From assembly GCA_021734685.1 (NCBI GenBank), contig JAIPIL010000002.1, positions 1 through 37,654 of the forward strand: a stretch of 37,654 nucleotides of DNA. The letters are read 5' to 3'. This document shows, in pieces, positions 3,494 to 37,356 of this stretch (the first letter of the stretch is position 1; the number at the start of each line of letters is the position of its first letter). Below the pieces are notes generated by a model, which saw only the letters and a list, made by a program, of their open reading frames with translations, was not told the DNA's origin and did not search any database. The stretch is from Minisyncoccota bacterium (lineage in GTDB: Bacteria > Patescibacteriota > Minisyncoccia > Minisyncoccales > PWPS01). A program made the position numbers and the translations under genes.

Positions 3494-3507
3494 AAAGACA
3501 ATAATCT

Positions 3508-3594
3508 GTCATTCCCGCGAAAGCGGGAATCCAGTTTTGAAAATTAAGAAATTGAAAATTCATTGAAAATTGAAAATTGCCAAATTGAAAATTT
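3508..3594 (+). repeat. Intergenic repeat mosaic: HP-A hairpin plus TTGAAAA-type array
   Basis: HP-A GTCATTCCCGCGAAAGCGGGAATCCAG at 3508-3534. Array TTTTGAAAATTAAGAAATTGAAAATTCATTGAAAATTGAAAATTGCCAAATTGAAAATTTT at 3535-3594, identical to 9796-9856. Confidence 0.9.
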
Positions 3595-3635
3595 TAGTCA
3601 GTGTTTTAAAATTCAAAATTAATAATTATTAAATT

Positions 3636-7383: not shown

Positions 7384-7644
7384 CGCTTCCAAAGGAAGCG
7401 CGCGAAACAACGCAAAACAAAAACGCAAAACAACGCAAAACTTCTTCCACCGTCATTGCGAGGAGTGAAACGACGTGGCAATCCCATCATCCTTGCAGAA
7501 ACCATGAGATTCTTCGCTCCGCTCAGAATGACGGCGGAGTGTCATTCCCACCACCCCTGTCATTCCCGCGAAAGCGGGAATCCAGTTTAGTGTAGTTTCG
7601 CGTCCCAGTTTCGCGTCGTTTCGCGCAAACCACAAAGTGGTTTG
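7384..7644 (+). repeat. Composite palindromic repeat mosaic
   Basis: Hairpin CGCTTCC-AAA-GGAAGCG 7384-7400; ACGCAAAACA-type array 7398-7441; PAL-B 7452-7532; half-site GTCATTCCC 7541-7549; HP-A 7559-7585; inverted (GTTTCGCG) array 7586-7626; hairpin CAAACCAC-AAA-GTGGTTTG 7626-7644. Confidence 0.9.
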
Positions 7645-9016: not shown

Positions 9017-9022
9017 GCTACC

Positions 9023-9214
9023 GCGCGCGAAACAACGCAAAACAAAAACGCGAAACTACGCAAAACTAGATTCCCGCTTTCACGGGAATGACAAACCCAT
9101 GTCCAACCCGGGGTTGGACATCAGTGAAACTCCGTCATTGCGAGGAGCGAAGCGACGTGGCAATCCCATTATCCTTGCAGCATCCATGAGATTCTTCGCT
9201 TCGCTCAGAATGAC
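9023..9214 (+). repeat. Repeat mosaic with an inverted HP-A copy
   Basis: ACGCAAAACA-type array 9023-9066; inverted HP-A CTAGATTCCCGCTTTCACGGGAATGAC 9066-9092; hairpin ATGTCCAA-CCCGGGG-TTGGACAT 9099-9121; PAL-B 9134-9214. Confidence 0.9.
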
Positions 9215-9234
9215 GGTGCATTAAACAAAAAAAA

Positions 9235-9267
9235 ATGACACAGATCAGACCTGTGCCATTTTTTTTG
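9235..9267. terminator. Bidirectional intrinsic terminator between holA(+) and rpsT(-)
   Basis: ATGACACAG (9235-9243) / CTGTGCCAT (9251-9259), one mismatch. A9 upstream and T8 downstream. Confidence 0.7.
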
Positions 9268-9276
9268 TTTAGAGAG

Positions 9277-9592: not shown

Positions 9593-9856
9593 CAAACCAC
9601 TTCGTGATTTGCGCGAAACAACGCAAAACAAAAATGCAAAACAACGCAAAACTTTTTCCACCGTCATTGCGAGGAGCGAAGCGACGTGGCAATCCCATTA
9701 TCTTTGCAGGAACTATGAGATTCTTCGCTTCGCTCAGAATGACGGTGAAGTATCATCTCCCCTCCCTCGTCATTCCCGCGAACGCGGGAATCCAGTTTTG
9801 AAAATTAAGAAATTGAAAATTCATTGAAAATTGAAAATTGCCAAATTGAAAATTTT
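9593..9856 (+). repeat. Composite repeat mosaic
   Basis: ACGCAAAACA-type array about 9610-9655; PAL-B 9663-9743; HP-A with GAAC loop 9769-9795; TTGAAAA-type array 9796-9856. Confidence 0.9.
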
Positions 9857-9904: not shown

Positions 9905-10441
9905 ATGATATATTACATAAAAGGAATAATTACTATTAAGGAGAAAGATTTTGTTGTTATTGAAAGTAACGGAGTTGGGTATAAGATTTTTGTTGCTCCT
10001 GAAACTAGAGATCTTCTTGAAAAGGAAGTAACTATCTACTGTTATACAAAAAAAACCGACAAAGAAAATCAACTTTACGGCTTTCCAGAAAAAGAAAACT
10101 TGGAGTTGTTTGAAAAACTTCTTAAGATATCAGGAATAGGTCCGAAGACAGCGCTCGGAATCTCTTCAATCGCCTCAATGGAAGAACTTAAAAAAGGAAT
10201 AGAAGTGGAAGATAAAAAGATAATAAAAAAGATCTTCAAGGTTGGAAAGAAGAAAGGAGAGCAGATTGTTTTTGAGATATCAAGAAAGATGATTCAAGAG
10301 AGCAAGGAAGATGAAGTTTATCAAGCCTTAAAGAGTCTTGGTTTTCAAGAATATGAAATTAACGAAGCGTTAAAAAATACTTCTTCAGAAGATAGCGACG
10401 AAGAAAGAATGGCGGAAGCTTTAAAATATCTAGGGCAATGA
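9905..10441 (+). CDS. ruvA: Holliday junction DNA helicase RuvA
   Basis: 178 aa. MIYYIKGII...VVIESNGVGYKIFV, LYGF, HhH motif ISGIGPKTALGI. Confidence 0.9.
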   Translation: MIYYIKGIITIKEKDFVVIESNGVGYKIFVAPETRDLLEKEVTIYCYTKKTDKENQLYGFPEKENLELFEKLLKISGIGPKTALGISSIASMEELKKGIEVEDKKIIKKIFKVGKKKGEQIVFEISRKMIQESKEDEVYQALKSLGFQEYEINEALKNTSSEDSDEERMAEALKYLGQ

Positions 10442-11691
10442 TAAAAGATGTAATCAGAAAAATAAAACCTGTTGTTAGTTTTTATCACTTTCTATACTCT
10501 TTTGCAGGAGCAGTGTGGTATCGTTTTCCTTCTCGCAAGATTACAGTTATCGGGGTTACTGGAACTAACGGAAAAACAACAACCGTTGACTTTGCTTCAC
10601 GAATAATGAAAAAGGGGGGACTTCGAGTTGCTTCCTTCTCTTCAATCAAATTTGAAATTGCAGGTGAAGAGGAGACAAACCTTTTCAAAATGACGATGCC
10701 GGGAAGAGCGTTTCTTCAAAAGATGATAAGAAGGGCAGTTGATAAAAAATGCGATGTTGTTGTGATGGAAGTAACATCAGAAGGGATAAAGCAACACCGT
10801 CACCGATTCATAAACTTTCAAGGAGCATGCTTCACAAACCTCTCTCCAGAGCATATTGAATCACACGGAGGATTTGAAAACTACCGAAAAGAAAAAGAGA
10901 AACTTTTCAAAAAAACAAAAAACCTACACATCATAAATATTGATGACGAAAACGCTGATTATTTTCTGAAGCATCGGAGCAGAGAAAAGATTCTGTGCAC
11001 CACAAAACAAGAAAAAAAGGAAAATCTTTTAAAGGCAGAAAAGATAGAATCAACCGCTAACGGCACAACCTTTTTTATTAACGATGAAAAATTTACTTTA
11101 GCGGTAGCTGGAAAGTTTAATGTTTACAACGCTCTTTCAGCAGTAGCGATTGCTAGCAGTCAAGGAGTTTCCCTTAAAGACGCAAAAGAAGCGCTCCAAG
11201 AAAAATTCACAGTAAGCGGAAGAATGGAACAAGTAGTCTCCTCTCCGTTCAAAGTTATAATTGATTACGCGGTTACTCCCGATGCCCTTGAACAACTATA
11301 CAAAGAAGTGAAAGAAAACTTTTCAGCAAACAAAATTATCGCCGTTTTTGGAGCTTGTGGGGGAGGAAGAGACAAGTGGAAGCGACCAAAATTAGGAGAG
11401 ATTGCGGGAAGATACTGCGATTATATAATTTTAACAAACGAAGACCCCTATGATGAAAATCCAGAAGAGATCTTAAACGACATTGAAAAAGGAGTTCCAA
11501 AAAACACTGCTTATGAAAAAATAATAGACCGAGAAGAAGCAGTGAAAAAAGCCCTAAAACAAGCCAAAGAAAAAGATATAGTAGTAATCACCGGAAAAGG
11601 ATCCGAACCATGGATGGCCCTATCAAAAGGAAAAAAAATCCCCTGGAGCGACAAGGAAGTAATTAAGAAACATTTGACAATTGACAATTGA
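10438..11691 (+). CDS. murE: Mur ligase, MurE-like (UDP-MurNAc-tripeptide synthetase), short N-terminus
   Basis: 417 aa. GVTGTNGKTTT P-loop, DYAVTPDAL, GACGGGRDKWKRPKLG, TNEDPYDENPEEI, ITGKGSE. ATGA overlap with ruvA. The last codons (LTIDN-stop) lie in a TTGACAA array. Confidence 0.8.
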   Translation: MIKDVIRKIKPVVSFYHFLYSFAGAVWYRFPSRKITVIGVTGTNGKTTTVDFASRIMKKGGLRVASFSSIKFEIAGEEETNLFKMTMPGRAFLQKMIRRAVDKKCDVVVMEVTSEGIKQHRHRFINFQGACFTNLSPEHIESHGGFENYRKEKEKLFKKTKNLHIINIDDENADYFLKHRSREKILCTTKQEKKENLLKAEKIESTANGTTFFINDEKFTLAVAGKFNVYNALSAVAIASSQGVSLKDAKEALQEKFTVSGRMEQVVSSPFKVIIDYAVTPDALEQLYKEVKENFSANKIIAVFGACGGGRDKWKRPKLGEIAGRYCDYIILTNEDPYDENPEEILNDIEKGVPKNTAYEKIIDREEAVKKALKQAKEKDIVVITGKGSEPWMALSKGKKIPWSDKEVIKKHLTIDN

Positions 11692-11770
11692 CATTTGACT
11701 TCTTGTTATTCCCGCCCACCCCTGTCATTCCCGCCCTCCCTTGTCATTCCCAGCTTGACTGGGAATCCAG
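11671..11770 (+). repeat. Repeat mosaic
   Basis: TTGACAA array 11671-11702 (contains the murE stop); half-sites GTTATTCCC 11705, GTCATTCCC 11724; HP-A CAG/CTTGA variant 11743-11770. Spacing 19 nt. Confidence 0.9.
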
Positions 11771-12746: not shown

Positions 12747-12751
12747 TCCCC

Positions 12752-12915
12752 GTCATTGCGAGGAGCGAAGCGACGTGGCAATCCCTTGAACCCCCCCGTC
12801 ATTCCCGCCCTCCCCCGTCATTCCCAACTTGATTGGGAATCCAGTTTTGAATTTTGAATTTAGTATTTTGAATTTATTTAGAATTTGGTGCTTAGAATTT
12901 AGAATTTATTTTTTT
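12752..12915 (+). repeat. Repeat mosaic between convergent genes
   Basis: Single PAL-B arm GTCATTGCGAGGAGCGAAGCGACGTGGCAATCCC 12752-12785; half-site 12798-12806; HP-A CAA/CTTGA/TTG variant 12817-12844; TTTGAAT/TTAGAAT array 12845-12915 overlapping the Elp3 stop. Confidence 0.9.
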
Positions 12916-15066: not shown

Positions 15067-15284
15067 GCATTTGACATTTGACATTTGACTGTCATTCTGA
15101 GCGAAGCGAAGAATCCCATCATCTTTGCAGTCCACGAGAGATTGCCACGGGCTAAAGCCCTCGCAATGACGATGGAGTGTCACTCCCACATTCTTTGTCA
15201 TTCCCGCGAAAGCGGGAATCCAGTTTTGAAAATTAAAAAATTGAAAATTCATTGAAAATTGTCAAATTGAAAATTGAAAATTTT
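15067..15284 (+). repeat. Composite repeat mosaic
   Basis: TTGACAT array 15067-15089; PAL-B with swapped arm types 15091-15170; degenerate half-site 15178-15186; HP-A 15197-15223; TTGAAAA array 15224-15284. Confidence 0.9.
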
Positions 15285-15381
15285 AGTCATTAATTCAAAA
15301 TTACTCAAACTTGCTTTATTGAAAAAGGAGTCAGGTACCTTTTTTAGAAAAATCTAGTATCATAATAATAACAAACATAAT

Positions 15382-15717
15382 ATGAAAAACTTAGGAATAT
15401 CTTTAATCTTTGTAGGAATCGCTATCATCTTATTAGTAATGTTTTTTGCTTTTCAGATCTTTGTCCAAGAGGAAGAGCCACCTATGGTATTCAAAGAGAG
15501 AGAAGTGATGATTAGCGATGTTTTTGGAGGAATACCAGTAGCAACTGAAAACGGCGAAGAGATGGAGATAGCAATTGGAGAAGGTGTAAAAATAGAAGAT
15601 GTTTTTCCAATAAACAAAACCCTAAACCTCTCCGCATTCTCAATCTTCGCTTTCATAATCTTCTCCGGAGCAGTAAAACTAACAAAAATAGGAATAGAAA
15701 TAAAGCGTGACAATTGA
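15382..15717 (+). CDS. Hypothetical small membrane protein (2 TM segments)
   Basis: 111 aa with N- and C-terminal hydrophobic helices. The stop lies in a TTGACAA array. No recognisable family. Confidence 0.5.
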   Translation: MKNLGISLIFVGIAIILLVMFFAFQIFVQEEEPPMVFKEREVMISDVFGGIPVATENGEEMEIAIGEGVKIEDVFPINKTLNLSAFSIFAFIIFSGAVKLTKIGIEIKRDN

Positions 15718-15823
15718 CAATTAACAATTGACCTTTGACACATCACTGTCATTCCCACCCATCTGTCATTCCCGCGAAAGCGGGAATCCAGTCAAAAGTC
15801 ACATGTCAACTGTCAAATGTCAC
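15707..15823 (+). repeat. Repeat mosaic with complementary TGAC/GTCA arms
   Basis: GTGACAATTGACAATTAACAATTGACCTTTGACAC 15707-15741; half-site 15748-15756; HP-A 15765-15791; inverted array GTCAAAAGTCACATGTCAACTGTCAAATGTCAC 15791-15823. Confidence 0.9.
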
Positions 15824-17228: not shown

Positions 17229-17450
17229 AAAATTTTCAATTTGACAATTTTCAATTTTCAAATCCTAAGCACTAAATCCTAAACTCTAAACAAACCCAAA
17301 ATCCAAATGACAAAAATCCAAAACAAAAACACTGTCATTCTGAGCGAAGCGAAGAATCTCGTTTTGAATTTAGTATTTAGAATTTAGAGTTTATCATTTT
17401 AAATTTGTAATTTATTTTTGAAAATTGCCAAATTGAAAATTGAAAATTTT
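17229..17450 (+). repeat. 222-nt composite palindrome inserted between rpmI and rplT
   Basis: Inverted TTGAAAA array 17229-17262; CTAAA(T/C)C array 17263-17291; single PAL-B arm GTCATTCTGAGCGAAGCGAAGAATCTC 17334-17360; TTTAGAAT array 17361-17419; TTGAAAA array 17420-17450. Confidence 0.9.
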
Positions 17451-18326: not shown

Positions 18327-18556
18327 GTTTCCAAAGGAAACACGCAAAACAACGCGAAACTTTTCCCTCCGTCATTCTGAAGGAGGGAAACGACTGAAGA
18401 ATCCCATCACCTCTGCAATCACCATGAGATTCTTCACTTCACTACGCTCCGTTCAGAATGACAGTGGGGTATCATTCCCACCCCCCCTGTCATTCCCGCA
18501 AAAGCGGGAATCCAGTCAATAGTCAAAAGTCACATGTCAAATGTCAATTGTCAACC
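18327..18556 (+). repeat. Composite repeat mosaic in the divergent smpB/argS spacer
   Basis: Hairpin GTTTCC-AAA-GGAAAC 18327-18341; ACGCAAAAC array 18342-18360; PAL-B (92 nt) 18371-18462; degenerate half-site 18471-18479; HP-A with AAAA loop 18489-18515; GTCAA array 18515-18556. Confidence 0.9.
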
Positions 18557-23445: not shown

Positions 23446-24102
23446 ATGTTCACTCACCATCGTACTCAAGCAATAATCCTAGATGACAAACAAGTTGGTG
23501 AAGCCGATCGGATTTTTACTTTTTACACCAAAGACTTTGGAAAGATAACTGCAACCGGAAGATCAATTAGAAAAGGGAAGTCAAAGCTGAAAATGAACAC
23601 TCAACTCTTCTCTTTCTCAGAGATAGAGTTTATCCAAGGAAGAAAAAACAACACCCTCACTGACGCTGTCCTTTTATCAAGTTTCAGAAAAACAAAAAAC
23701 AACTTAGCAAAACTCTCTCTCTTCTACCGCATCGCCGAAACCACCCTCTCTTTCATAAAAGAACAAGAGAAAGACGAGAAGATCTTTAACCTTCTTCTTG
23801 AAACCCTTCAAGAAGTGGAAGAAAAAAACCTCTCCAAAGAAAAGCTGAAAATAATGTGGTGTGCCTACACTTTTCGCCTACTTTATTTTTTAGGATATAA
23901 GTTATATACTAAGGAGTGTATGATCTGTGAAGAGAAGATAGAAGCAGAGTGCTACTTCAACCCCGAAGGAAAAGGAGTAGTCTGCCCAAAATGCTACCCA
24001 AAAAACCCAACCGGAATCTACATAGACGACATAAAAAAAGTATTCCTAACAAACCCAAACCGTTGCATAAAAATAACAAAAAGCTATATAAATAACATAT
24101 AG
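23446..24102 (+). CDS. recO: DNA repair protein RecO
   Basis: 218 aa. MFTHHRTQAIILDDKQVGEADRIFTFYTKDFGKITATGRSIRK (OB fold), C-terminal Cys cluster CMICEEK...VCPKC. Confidence 0.88.
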   Translation: MFTHHRTQAIILDDKQVGEADRIFTFYTKDFGKITATGRSIRKGKSKLKMNTQLFSFSEIEFIQGRKNNTLTDAVLLSSFRKTKNNLAKLSLFYRIAETTLSFIKEQEKDEKIFNLLLETLQEVEEKNLSKEKLKIMWCAYTFRLLYFLGYKLYTKECMICEEKIEAECYFNPEGKGVVCPKCYPKNPTGIYIDDIKKVFLTNPNRCIKITKSYINNI

Positions 24103-24423
24103 AAATAATTTTCAATTTGGCAATTTTCAATTTTCAATGAATGACCAAATGACCAAATGACCAAAACAACCATTTCTGTCATTCTGAAGGAGTGAAACGA
24201 CTGAAGAATCCCATCATTCTTGTAAAAACCATGAGATTCTTCACTACGCTACGCTTCGTTCAGAATGACGGTGGGGTGGCTCTCACGCCCCCTGTCATTC
24301 CCACCCCCACCTGTCATTCCCGCTCCCCCTCTTGTCATTCCCGCGAAAGCGGGAATCCAGTTTTGAAAATTAAAAAATTGAAAATTCATTGAAAATTGCC
24401 AAATTGAAAATTGAAAATTTTAG
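24103..24423 (+). repeat. 321-nt composite palindromic mosaic
   Basis: Inverted TTGAAAA array plus ATGACCAA x3 24103-24177; PAL-B (92 nt) 24178-24269; half-sites 24294 and 24313; HP-A 24334-24360; TTGAAAA array 24361-24423. Confidence 0.9.
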
Positions 24424-24440
24424 TCAGTGTTTTAATAATT

Positions 24441-24842
24441 ATGCCAAAAGTCAAAAGTCAAAAGTCAATTGTTAAATGTCAAAGTGGTTTCACCCTAATG
24501 GAACTAATGATCGTAATTGGGCTTCTGGTTATTTTCACCACCTTAACGATTCCTTACGGACTTAATTTTTATAACGCTCGGATGTTAGAAGAAGAAACCG
24601 CAAGCGTTGCAACTGTAATTGAGAGAGCAAGAGCTCACGCCGTATCAGGAAAAGAAGACAGCGATTGGGGAGTCCGATTTTTATACGCCCAAAATCAGTT
24701 CACAATATTCAAAGGAAGTTCTTGCGGATCAGGAACAATATACCAAACATTTAATCTAAACGACTCAACCGAACTAGAAAGCGAAATAAACTGCATAATC
24801 TTCGAAAGACACACAGGAATCCCAAAAATATATAATAACTAG
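24441..24842 (+). CDS. Type IV pilin-like protein (prepilin N-terminal cleavage/methylation domain)
   Basis: MPKVKSQKSIVKCQSG|FTLMELMIVIGLLVIF is a class III signal peptide. The track start 24411 (TTG) lies in the repeat array; ATG 24441 is preferred. The leader is encoded by a GTCAAAA array (24444-24487). Confidence 0.85.
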   Translation: MPKVKSQKSIVKCQSGFTLMELMIVIGLLVIFTTLTIPYGLNFYNARMLEEETASVATVIERARAHAVSGKEDSDWGVRFLYAQNQFTIFKGSSCGSGTIYQTFNLNDSTELESEINCIIFERHTGIPKIYNN

Positions 24843-24986
24843 TGACAATTGACATGTGACATGTGACTGTCATTCCCGCCCCCACTTGTCATTCCCAGCT
24901 TGACTGGGAATCCAGTTTGTAATTTTGAACATTGTAATTTGTAATTTATTTGGAATTTGTAATTTAGAATTTGTAATTTAATATCT
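24842..24986 (+). repeat. Repeat mosaic
   Basis: GTGACA array 24842-24867; half-site 24869-24877; HP-A CAG variant 24888-24915; TTTGTAA array 24916-24986 running up to the next ATG. Confidence 0.9.
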
Positions 24987-28067: not shown

Positions 28068-28380
28068 ACGAAGCGAAGCGTAGTGAAGAATCCCAACGAG
28101 AATTTTCAATTTTCAATTTGACAATTTTCAATAAATGACCAAATTTCCAAATGATTTAATTTTAAAACAACCATCTGTCATTCTGAAGGAGTGAAACGAC
28201 TGAAGAATCCCATCATCCTTGCAGAAACCATGAGATTCTTCGCTTCGCTCAGAATGACGGCGGAGTGCCATTCTCACCCCCTCCCTGTCATTCCCGCGAA
28301 AGCGGGAATCCAGAAACCAGTTTTGAAAATTAAAAAATTGAAAATTCATTGAAAATTGAAAATTGCCAAATTGAAAATTA
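28058..28380 (+). repeat. Composite palindromic mosaic
   Basis: Single PAL-B arm GTCATTCTGAACGAAGCGAAGCGTAGTGAAGAATCCC 28058-28094; inverted TTGAAAA array plus ATGACCAA 28098-28176; PAL-B 28177-28258; HP-A 28287-28313; TTGAAAA array 28321-28380. Confidence 0.9.
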
Positions 28381-28423
28381 AAACAAATTTGTCATTTCAA
28401 ATTTTTTATATATAATAAAAACA

Positions 28424-29440: not shown

Positions 29441-29581
29441 CAAAAATTTTCAATTTGGCAATTTTCAATTTTCAATAAATTTTCAAATGACCAAATTTCC
29501 AAACAATAAAAACAATTCCCAGCGCCTCAATTGTCATTCCCAGCGTCTCAATTGTCATTCCCAGCTTGACTGGGAATCCAG
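29441..29581 (+). repeat. Repeat mosaic forming the left flank of the GIY-YIG gene
   Basis: Inverted TTGAAAA array plus ATGACCAA 29441-29513; two ATTCCCAGCG(C/T)CTCAATTGTC units 29514-29553; HP-A CAG variant 29554-29581. Confidence 0.9.
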
Positions 29582-29894
29582 TAAACCGTCACCATGAAAA
29601 CATACTACGTTTACATTATGGCAAGCAAAAGAAACGGCACCCTTTATATCGGAGTAACCAATGACTTGGAAAGAAGAATATACGAACACAAAAATAATAT
29701 TATAAAAGGATTCACAGAAAAATATAAAGTTCATTATCTTGTATATTACGAAGAAACAAGTGATATAAAAACAGCAATAGAAAGAGAAAAACAAATAAAA
29801 AAATGGAACAGAAAATGGAAGTTAGAATTAATTGAAAAAGAAAATAAAGAGTGGGTAGATTTAACTACTGGATTCCCGCTTTCGCGGGAATGAC
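29554..29894 (+). mobile_element. Candidate REPtron-like cassette: GIY-YIG gene between inverted HP-A hairpins
   Basis: Left HP-A (forward) 29554-29581, right HP-A (inverted, exact consensus) 29868-29894. 341 bp in total. Confidence 0.4.
29594..29893 (+). CDS. Small stand-alone GIY-YIG nuclease family protein (COG2827/UPF0213-like)
   Basis: 99 aa. YYVYIMASKRNGTLYIGVTNDLERRIYEH...KQIKKWNRKWK is the GIY...YIG...R...E core. The last 8 codons and the TGA lie in an inverted HP-A copy. Confidence 0.9.
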   Translation: MKTYYVYIMASKRNGTLYIGVTNDLERRIYEHKNNIIKGFTEKYKVHYLVYYEETSDIKTAIEREKQIKKWNRKWKLELIEKENKEWVDLTTGFPLSRE

Positions 29895-29931
29895 AAAAAG
29901 GTTTTTAAAATTCGTAATTCAAAATTAACTC

Positions 29932-31570: not shown

Positions 31571-31598
31571 TTGACTTTTCAAAATTATTAAATATACT
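31571..31598 (+). promoter_or_regulatory. Candidate promoter of pilB
   Basis: TTGACT 31571-31576, 16-nt spacer, TATACT 31593-31598. It shares AAATATACTTAAAAT with the pilin promoter at 34893-34908. Confidence 0.45.
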
Positions 31599-33339: not shown

Positions 33340-33604
33340 CAAAAATTTTCAATTTTCAATTTGACAATTTTCAATGAATGACCAAATTTCCAAATGACCA
33401 AAACAACCATTCCTGTCATTCTGAAGGAGCGAAGCGACTGAAGAATCCCATCATCCTTGCAGAAACCATGAGATTCTTCGCTCCGCTCAGAATGACGGCG
33501 GAGTGTCATTCCCACCCCCTCACCTGTCATTCCCGCGAAAGCGGGAATCCAGAAACCAGTTTTGAAAATTAGAAAATTGAAAATTGCCAAATTGAAAATT
33601 AAAC
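33340..33604 (+). repeat. 265-nt composite palindromic mosaic between pilB and pilC
   Basis: Inverted TTGAAAA array plus ATGACCAA 33340-33414; PAL-B 33415-33496; half-site 33505-33513; HP-A 33526-33552; TTGAAAA array 33553-33604. Confidence 0.9.
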
Positions 33605-34665: not shown

Positions 34666-34870
34666 GTCATTCTGAGCGAAGCGAAGAATCCCATCGTAAA
34701 AGCACCAAATCCAAAATCACAAATCCCAAATAAGCACCAATAACCAAAACCCAAAATCCAAAACAACAATTTGTCATTCCCAGCTTGACTGGGAATCCAG
34801 TTTGTAATTTTGAAAATTTGAATTTGTAATTTATTTGTAATTTGTAATTTTGAATTTGTAATTTAATTTT
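34666..34870 (+). repeat. Composite repeat mosaic
   Basis: Single PAL-B arm 34666-34692; AAATCC/AAATCAC array 34693-34772; HP-A CAG variant 34773-34800; TTTGTAA array 34801-34870. Confidence 0.9.
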
Positions 34871-34874
34871 TTTC

Positions 34875-34902
34875 TTTACAAAAAAAAATTTATAAATATA
34901 CT
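34875..34902 (+). promoter_or_regulatory. Candidate promoter giving a leaderless pilin mRNA
   Basis: TTTACA 34875-34880, 16-nt spacer, TATACT 34897-34902. The ATG at 34909 is 7 nt downstream of the -10. Confidence 0.4.
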
Positions 34903-37114: not shown

Positions 37115-37116
37115 CG

Positions 37117-37316
37117 GCGCGCGAAACAACGCGAAACTGAAAACGCAAAACAACGCAAAACTTCACCCCCCCCGTCATTCTGAAGGAGTGAAACGACTGA
37201 AGAATCCCATCATCCTTGCAAAAACCATGAGATTCTTCGCTTCGCTCAGAATGACGGCGGAGTGTCATTCCCAGCTTGACTAGGAATCCAGTAATCAGCG
37301 TTCATCAGCGTTTTTC
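37117..37316 (+). repeat. Composite repeat mosaic
   Basis: ACGCAAAAC array 37117-37161; PAL-B 37174-37255; HP-A CAG variant with one stem mismatch (CTAGG) 37264-37291; ATCAGCGTT array 37292-37316. Confidence 0.9.
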
Positions 37317-37356
37317 AAAATTAAAAAATTAAATATTCATTTAAAATTAATAAAAA

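Follow-up and report, generated by a model that had tools for sequence, protein, structure and literature searches.

Neisserial intergenic mosaic elements (NIMEs) consist of dRS3/NTS hairpins interleaved with more than 100 AT-richer RS families (Bentley 2007, PMC1797815). They occupy syntenic positions, are highly variable and are said not to be observed outside Neisseria (PMC1797815). The NTS motif is the binding site of SsnA, a GIY-YIG nuclease of 94 amino acids (Chenal 2025, PMC11893778). Its cleavage of single-stranded DNA is limited to one strand and falls a few nucleotides 5' of the hairpin; copies of the NTS motif typically bracket the gene for SsnA (PMC11893778). Repetitive extragenic palindromes (REPs) of the CGTC-1 type have an 8-bp stem, a 4-nt loop and a CCA tail; TGTC is a listed variant of their tag (Di Nocera 2013, PMC3733652). 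Some REP dimers, CGTC-1 included, lie inside longer palindromes in Anabaena variabilis and Halothiobacillus neapolitanus; these palindromes have a unique consensus of 41-55 bp and are not found without REPs (PMC3733652). Here, we describe the spacer between recO and a type IV pilin-like gene in a Minisyncoccota bacterium (Patescibacteria), which is a nested palindrome with a hairpin of this type in its core. Since the core is of a known kind, it is the arms around it that need explaining.

The window, meaning the whole 37,654-nt stretch analysed, is the entire contig C4 (37.6 kb) of the source genome (G000; an assembly of 456 kb in 30 contigs, ~35% G+C). The closest genome compared is that of a sister species (G012; metagenome-assembled genome (MAG) JAYEKQ01, Patescibacteria group). 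It is syntenic with the window throughout, and the larger gene blocks are 85-92% identical at the nucleotide level. An assembly artefact was considered and rejected because the same modules, and the synteny, recur in this independent MAG. Array families are named F1 (AATTTTCAA/TTGAAAATT), F2 (TTGACA), F3 (CGCGAAAC) and F4 (AAATCCTAAA / TTTGTAATTT). H is the NTS-type core hairpin (H> and <H give its orientation), PAL-B is a second core motif and U is another hairpin type. With a probability of about 0.6, we favour the view that the recO-pilin spacer is a nested mosaic of non-autonomous repeats, and not a structure built or selected locally. Its outer layer is probably one copy of F1, a lineage-specific palindromic element that has two different arms of ~60 nt and resembles miniature inverted-repeat transposable elements (MITEs). 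The core is best read as a REPIN-like doublet, PAL-B, next to an NTS / CGTC-1 hairpin with duplicated half-sites. The features of the spacer are as follows.

23446-24102, + strand: recO, the upstream gene (Pfam RecO_N and RecO_C)
24107-24142, + strand: outer left arm, F1 type A; AATTTTC heptads with a TTTGGC interruption, inverted repeat of 24384-24419
24140-24177, + strand: inner type A arm; AATGACCA repeated 3.2 times, then the linker AAAACAACCATTTCT; no complement in the right arm
24178-24269, + strand: PAL-B, a REPIN-like doublet; two GTCATTCT...AGAATCC units in inverted orientation
24285-24344, + strand: three direct repeats of period 19-21; the 5' half-site GTCATTCCCRC plus a C-rich tract
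24334-24360, + strand: hairpin H, GTCATTCCCGCGAAAGCGGGAATCCAG; an NTS / Ssn-related motif of the CGTC-1 REP or dRS3 type
24361-24419, + strand: right arm, F1 type B, TTTTGAAAATTAAAAAATTGAAAATTCATTGAAAATTGCCAAATTGAAAATTGAAAATT
24411-24439, + strand: promoter-like TTGAAA-17-AATAAT, formed by the arm end and unique DNA before the pilin start; a consensus match only
24441-24842, + strand: type IV pilin-like gene, the downstream gene (Pfam N_methyl)

Over 25 nt, the outermost arms (24107-24131 and 24388-24412) are 100% complementary; over the longer 36 nt of 24107-24142 and 24384-24419, complementarity is 83%. The ends of PAL-B form a further inverted repeat (24178-24191 and 24256-24269), and PAL-B is found again in many spacers. 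The fold of the whole recO-pilin spacer has a predicted energy of -106.7 kcal/mol, compared with -58.4 +/- 4.8 kcal/mol in shuffles (z = -10). Much of this energy is supplied by the GC-rich centre. Hence, cores were cut out by hand and energies were computed for duplexes of the arms only. At all seven loci named in a preliminary description of this DNA, the arms did better than 200 of 200 dinucleotide shuffles (z -3.9 to -6.6). Duplexes between arms of different families were weak (-1 to -19 kcal/mol). The claim that whole spacers are composite palindromes with complementary arms is therefore borne out.

We then pooled 411 spacers from the two genomes. Left and right forms of F1 co-occurred (odds ratio (OR) 43, p 5e-21), with 25 convergent, 0 divergent and 2 interleaved pairs. 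So did those of F4 (OR 39, p 1e-12; 14 convergent, 0 divergent). For F2, the OR was 5.8, and the noisy 6-mer motifs were mostly interleaved. No association was seen for F3, with both arms in 1 spacer, left only in 11 and right only in 10. The sole spacer with both F3 arms is 7398-7626. Around 184 cores, arrays were counted as forward left / forward right / reverse-complement left / reverse-complement right. The counts were 81/0/1/112 for F1, 52/0/0/30 for F3, 20/0/0/17 for F5 and 60/5/15/78 for F4. Hairpin H is asymmetric, and its direction had no effect on array side or orientation. About half of all arms in the two genomes are solo or stand opposite an arm of another family. For example, 3494-3635 has no left arm and 29441-29593 no right arm; mixed pairs lie at 15067-15381 (F2 left, F1 right), 18348-18533 (F3/F2) and 24843-24986 (F2/F4). 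Hence, the proposal that the two arms of a spacer match describes a strong tendency, evident from the co-occurrence tables, but not a rule. We take F2, F3 and F4 to be probable further modules of the F1 kind, placed with mirror symmetry about the hairpin core.

A 24-nt F1 anchor occurs in 82 copies in the two genomes, of which 33 are type A, 34 type B and 15 truncated or variant. Read from the outer end inward, type A is ...CAATGAATGACCAAATTTCC..., that is ...CAAT(G/A)AATGACCAAATTT..., and type B is ...CAATGAATTTTCAATTTCTTAATTT..., that is ...CAATGAATTTTCAATTT(C/T)TTAATTT.... The inverted repeat is confined to the outer ~30 nt of the ~60-nt arms, where AATTTTC heptads surround a TTTGRC interruption. 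There are ~23 complete F1 pairs and every one is A with B. Where H> is present in such a pair, the A arm is always 5' of it. This asymmetry is kept in dozens of copies and in two species. Hence, the element has been copied as a unit from family members. Anchor position 14 is G or A (GGCAA or GACAA), and partners do not co-vary: 6 pairs are the same and 5 different in the source genome, compared with 1 and 12 in the sister species. F1 left arms also pair equally well or better with the right arms of other F1 loci. Thus, the duplex energy of the left arm at 24103 is -53.3 kcal/mol when it is paired with the 28098 right arm, but -36.1 kcal/mol with its own. Unique flanking DNA is never duplicated in inverted form. 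The suggestion that one arm is copied from the other by fold-back fails on the constant A + B pairing, the uncoupled G/A site and the foreign partners that pair as well or better. We conclude that, at least for F1, arms are not made or selected locus by locus; they are inherited as family members.

Related arm families are found in two further genomes, G011 and G018. In these, both arms share a variant, either AAATTTC/GAAATTT or a TTATCAA interruption. The family in G011 is ~190 nt long and has a core without a hairpin. Since both arms share one variant in each lineage (AATTTTC, AAATTTC or TTATCAA), complementarity appears to be maintained by the repeat family, as with the ends of a transposon, and not by the individual locus. 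A search of 185,579 species genomes for the exact F1 anchor gave only the sister species and one chance match; records of the source genome itself were possibly omitted from this set. Of 14 genomes of the genus, only 3 have the exact hairpin pattern in abundance and a fourth has a single copy; one genome of a neighbouring genus has it too. A metagenome scan for near-identical strains gave 4 distant matches and no orthologous loci. One unrelated contig (Ga0172366_10093910, ~1350-1480) has an F1-like arm pair within an apparent open frame, just upstream of an intein-like (Hint) segment.

Spacers were compared with their orthologues in the sister species. The same architecture was kept in 1 of 23, the pilB-pilC spacer. 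The orthologous recO-pilin spacer is 246 nt long and contains an F3 left array, H hairpins, another hairpin and ATCCGTGTT arrays, with no F1 arms. The rpmI-rplT spacer is 239 nt with a nested palindrome in the source genome; in the sister species it is 44 nt and holds 26 nt of a B arm. Two further spacers (119 and 315 nt) are essentially absent. Between pilC and the pilin gene (34693-34870), arms are F4/F4 in the source genome and F1/F1 in the sister species, around the same H variant. Nearly all spacers of the two genomes contain some module. The pilB-pilC spacers of two distant congeners (G006 and G009) are short and have no element. The data indicate that the turnover of spacer content far outpaces the divergence of the flanking genes. 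Selection for pairing at each locus had been offered as the other source of the arms. It is not upheld, given a recO-pilin spacer without F1 arms in the sister species and one shared architecture in 23. As a separate observation, the orthologue of 37115-37356 is ~950 nt long, compared with 242 nt here; within it, H hairpins flank an open frame that is repetitive, with reiterated 'KHFD..' units.

Copies also spread within the genome. Positions 3531-3594 and 9792-9855 had been described as identical. They are, and the identical run extends to 73 nt (3523-3595 = 9784-9856). The orthologues of these two loci in the sister species differ, which supports the idea of recent spread or gene conversion that accompanied the original observation. 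Gene conversion also fits the different H stem variants at the same orthologous site of the two species. In the pilB-pilC spacer (33529-33548), the H stem-loop is GCGAAAGC in the source genome and AGCTTGACT in the sister species; the flanks are conserved, and the orthologues differ in this variant alone. Gene conversion would be expected to replace a whole stem variant in this way; point mutation would not.

The arms stay constant, and the cores and cargo between them are exchanged. Both species have basic F1 elements (140-170 nt) with a plain AT-rich core and no hairpin. Examples are C14:130-278, C20:6768-6936 and C25:37502-37648 in the source genome, with orthologues in the sister species. 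The element at C25:36656 has F4 arrays and H in its centre; its orthologue (D37:4695) has the basic core. Between the AI-2E transporter gene and metG (29441-29931), the source genome has an A arm, H>, an ssn gene, <H and a TTCAAAATT array. The sister species (contig 21, reverse strand) has an A arm, a four-helix-bundle gene and a B arm at this site. The latter gene, of the 23S-rRNA-IVS type, encodes 129 amino acids (PF05635 4.6e-17, TIGR02436 1.4e-22). Since cores and genes are exchanged between the same arms, the arms are constant frames for variable content. The ssn and PF05635 alternatives at this site resemble the minimal mobile elements of Neisseria. The rows for the gene-carrying element are as follows.

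29445-29931, + strand: gene-carrying element; A arm, half-sites, H>, ssn-like gene, <H and a TTCAAAATT-type array
29594-29893, + strand: ssn-like gene of 99 amino acids (Pfam GIY-YIG 2e-18), with H> upstream and <H at its 3' end

The core hairpin could be assigned closely. The copy at 24334-24360 fits the NTS consensus CGTCATTCCCGCGMAVGCGGGAATCYRG except for T in place of the first C, and contains ATTCCC-N8-GGGAAT. There are 55 ATTCCC..GGGAAT sites in the 456 kb, nearly all between open reading frames, and their GTC...CCAG flanks are constant. By its 8-bp stem, 4-nt loop and CCA tail, H is a CGTC-1 type REP in the TGTC variant. Judged by its sequence, H is of the published Ssn GIY-YIG nuclease target type, and its own cleavage is predicted. 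The orientation of H relative to the gene strand is moderately biased (61 vs 26, or 61/87); no correlation was seen with GC skew (44 vs 41). A second ssn-like gene of the source genome (~C12:1311-1588) is bracketed by U-type hairpins. The ssn homologue of G011 lies in a different spacer, apparently metG-pilB, flanked by an F3 array (left) and GTTTTGAC arrays (right).

Two genes for REP-associated tyrosine transposase (RAYT)-like proteins (Pfam Y1_Tnp) are also present in the source genome. They lie at C25:48910-49584 and C22:584-1324, as open frames of 225 and 247 amino acids. Each has its own hairpin on either side (CATGTCCAACCCGGGGTTGGACATG and CCCCGAGGTGAGACCTCGGG, respectively). The hairpin CATGTCCAACCCGGGGTTGGACATG recurs in the window, in spacer 9017-9276, with a related hairpin at ~9098-9125. 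The sister species has three more RAYT-like genes, with other hairpins. Hence, several systems of the REP/RAYT type coexist with Ssn/NTS in these half-megabase genomes.

Taken together, the gaps between genes are probably filled by selfish, fast-changing repeats, among them a small palindromic element that carries hairpins of the nuclease-target type at its centre. Spread and reshuffling may proceed via folded single strands, via homologous recombination between dispersed arms, or both. Candidate enzymes are Ssn and RAYT-like transposases, which would act on the hairpins. The recombining DNA may have been imported by the type IV pilus system. Deletion of unstable palindromes is likely to have left the solo arms behind. 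The elements may be tolerated because gene promoters lie outside them.

Several results weigh against a mosaic of selfish repeats. Automated tests of complementarity within versus between loci, in three versions, gave p values of 0.13-0.5. These tests used the flanks of regex-defined cores, and we attribute their weakness partly to crude core boundaries: k-mers fell in neighbouring genes, PAL-B was split, and arms lay >60 nt from the core. They were replaced by contingency tables of motif families, the table of side and orientation, and duplex energies of hand-delimited arms. No target-site duplication or clean empty site could be defined from the orthologous flanks in the sister species; the flanks are AT-rich, nearly every spacer is occupied in both species, and 'empty' spacers are themselves AT-rich short-period arrays. 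No transposase is enclosed between A and B arms, where the only genes are ssn in the source genome and the four-helix-bundle gene in the sister species. No DDE_3 (IS630-type) gene was found in four genomes, other transposase families not having been searched. No ssn homologue was found in the sister species at E <= 1e-5, although its genome has >100 matches to element modules. The RAYT-like genes are not flanked by PAL-B, H or arms but by other hairpins. Finally, the polarity is common to all arm families: on either strand, the arm 5' of the core is A/C-rich and the arm 3' of the core is G/T-rich. Purely selfish repeats do not require a common polarity, which may therefore conceal a function or a mechanistic constraint. 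The heptad families could also share it by common descent. The same polarity is the layout of a bidirectional terminator and, likewise, of outward TTGACA/TTGAAA units.

The first rival is selection by the host for structure. The spacers would be bidirectional terminators, insulators, RNase III sites or mRNA stabilisers. If any arm family sufficed, turnover without loss would be explained. The very stable folds (z = -10) agree with this, as does the occurrence of some module in almost every spacer of two species. An A/C-rich arm, a GC-rich hairpin and a G/T-rich arm form the layout of a bidirectional intrinsic terminator. Elements also split the classical operons rpoB-rpoC, rpmI-rplT and pilB-pilC. 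Hence, downstream genes must still be expressed. The Correia elements of Neisseria provide a precedent for such effects (PMC2649163). However, most congeners have short spacers and no elements, two orthologous spacers are empty in the sister species and roughly half of all arms are solo. H is followed by a short T-run, 3 nt away from the stem, and few H sites scanned as terminator-like. We consider host selection unlikely.

Second, the A and B arms may be the ends of an undescribed bacterial foldback element or cassette site, a reading that we regard as somewhat less probable again. Such arms, constant, co-evolving and built of tandem heptads, would frame exchangeable AT-rich cores, NTS/REPIN hairpins, and the ssn or the four-helix-bundle gene. 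The element might conceivably move as folded single strands, through Ssn or a RAYT-like enzyme and not a DDE transposase. If so, the universal polarity would be a mechanistic requirement of the reaction.

Third, several of the arrays had been described as stacks of -35-like hexamers. As promoters, TTGACA/TTGAAA repeats facing outward would drive the neighbouring genes. The TTGAAA and TTGACA units do point outward on both sides, and a 10/12 promoter-like match before the pilin gene uses the last TTGAAA of the B arm. Correia elements can form promoters at their ends (PMC2649163). However, promoter-like matches are not enriched (40 vs 34.1 +/- 5.7). The best sigma-70-like matches (28389-28416, 31571-31598 and 34875-34902) are found near start codons, in unique DNA beyond the arms. 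Also beyond the arms is the TATACT box that precedes pilB (31593-31598); it is conserved in the sister species. That species drives the pilin gene downstream of recO without F1 arms. Arms also adjoin the 3' ends of convergent genes (12747-12891). Promoter stacks are therefore very doubtful, and the proposal was not sustained. As an aside, two of these three best matches end 7-8 nt before ATG (28424 and 34909); from these positions, mRNAs would be leaderless or nearly so.

The least probable explanation is local fold-back (snap-back) synthesis, in which a cut near the hairpin lets the 3' end copy the opposite flank so that the second arm is made at the locus: convergent arms with a hairpin core at the centre, a core hairpin of a type whose published nuclease cuts single strands just 5' of it, and the solo B-arm piece at rpmI-rplT in the sister species where the source genome has a full palindrome all suit it, but it is countered by A/B differences conserved beyond the outer ~30 nt in dozens of copies and two species, by ~23/23 A + B pairs with an uncoupled G/A site and an own partner that is not the best, and by the lack of any inverted duplication of unique flanks.

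Other composite spacers of the window, including the remaining six of the seven loci, are listed below.

28098-28380, + strand: second F1 composite; A arm, PAL-B, H, B arm
33340-33604, + strand: third F1 composite, between pilB and pilC
17229-17450, + strand: nested composite between rpmI and rplT; F1 arms outside, F4 arms inside, one central U hairpin
15707-15823, + strand: F2 composite; TTGACA-type array, half-site, H, GTCAA-type array
7398-7626, + strand: F3 composite; CGCGAAAC array, PAL-B, H, GTTTCGCG array
34693-34870, + strand: F4 composite; AAATCC/AAGCACC arrays, H variant, TTTGTAATTT arrays
3523-3595, + strand: solo right arm in the rpoB-rpoC spacer; 3' part of H and a B arm

The complementarity of the F4 arms at 34693-34870 is only loose. 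Genes of the window are nearly all on the + strand and include rpoB, rpoC, recO, infC, rplT, pilB, pilC and pilins, together with the arginyl-, isoleucyl- and methionyl-tRNA synthetase genes. Rfam, at gathering thresholds, matched only tmRNA and tRNA in the window and nothing in the spacers. Arrays can extend into coding sequence. The leader of the pilin is encoded by a CAAAAGT array (24445-24483), and an ACAATTG array (11670-11699) forms the 3' end of a Mur ligase family gene (10438-11691). In the sister species, there is no gap between the latter gene and the next one. Of the 76 regex-defined hairpins of the source genome, 33 lie in the window, which is only 86% coding and has 38.3% G+C, compared with ~35% for most contigs. 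Either the repeat load is very uneven among contigs, or the remainder is hidden by assembly breaks at repeats.

A mosaic of selfish repeats would have several consequences. A streamlined half-megabase Patescibacteria genome would tolerate dense, fast-evolving repeats, even within classical operons. Constant arms, swapped cores and alternative genes at one site are a natural experiment that points to cassette-like exchange, which could bear on how NTS/CGTC repeats multiply. The elements would also explain assembly breaks, spurious open reading frames and altered protein ends in such MAGs. A literature search found no paper linking Patescibacteria to REP, RAYT or MITE repeats.

How does the locus compare with known systems? 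In eukaryotes, Foldback (FB) transposons have long inverted arms of tandem short repeats, and their centre is variable or absent. This is an analogy of architecture only; FB transposons belong to another domain of life and are of kilobase scale, and no homology is implied. The palindromes described by Di Nocera likewise enclose REPs, but the arms found here are ~60 nt of tandem heptads, come in several families, are asymmetric and also occur without REPs. Like MITEs and Correia elements (CREE), the elements are 140-330 nt long, multi-copy and intergenic, with terminal inverted repeats and a variable core. As with Correia elements, they lie at gene ends and have possible outward promoter-like hexamers. 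Unlike in MITEs, no target-site duplication was defined, no parent insertion sequence was found and complementarity is limited to the outer half of the arm. The cores of F1 are also swapped, and may hold hairpin repeats or a small gene. Bacterial interspersed mosaic elements (BIMEs) and REPINs share oppositely oriented hairpins with specific linkers, PAL-B being a REP doublet, and RAYT-like genes with cognate hairpins are present in the genome. Unlike in BIME/RAYT systems, the hairpins flanking RAYT genes are not PAL-B, H or arms, and array arms rich in AT have no BIME counterpart.

The closest likeness is to the NIME/Ssn system. The hairpin is near-identical, matching NTS except for T in place of the first C. 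As in NIMEs, GC-rich hairpins alternate with AT-richer modules of many families, and arrays at syntenic positions differ strongly between close genomes (here, 1/23 spacers are alike). A small GIY-YIG ssn-like gene is bracketed by hairpins, as for Ssn/NTS, and one site has alternative gene cassettes, as in minimal mobile elements. There are also differences. In NIMEs, hairpins frame RS units of 50-150 bp; here, inverted arms of 7-10 nt tandem units frame the hairpin, and NIME-like hairpins on both sides of a module are seen in only some spacers. The arms also stand alone as palindromic elements without a hairpin. Unlike the hosts of the NIME/Ssn system, the host is a Patescibacteria genome of ~0.5-0.6 Mb. 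The comparison would extend the Ssn/NTS and NIME picture, so far one of Neisseria, to the candidate phyla radiation.

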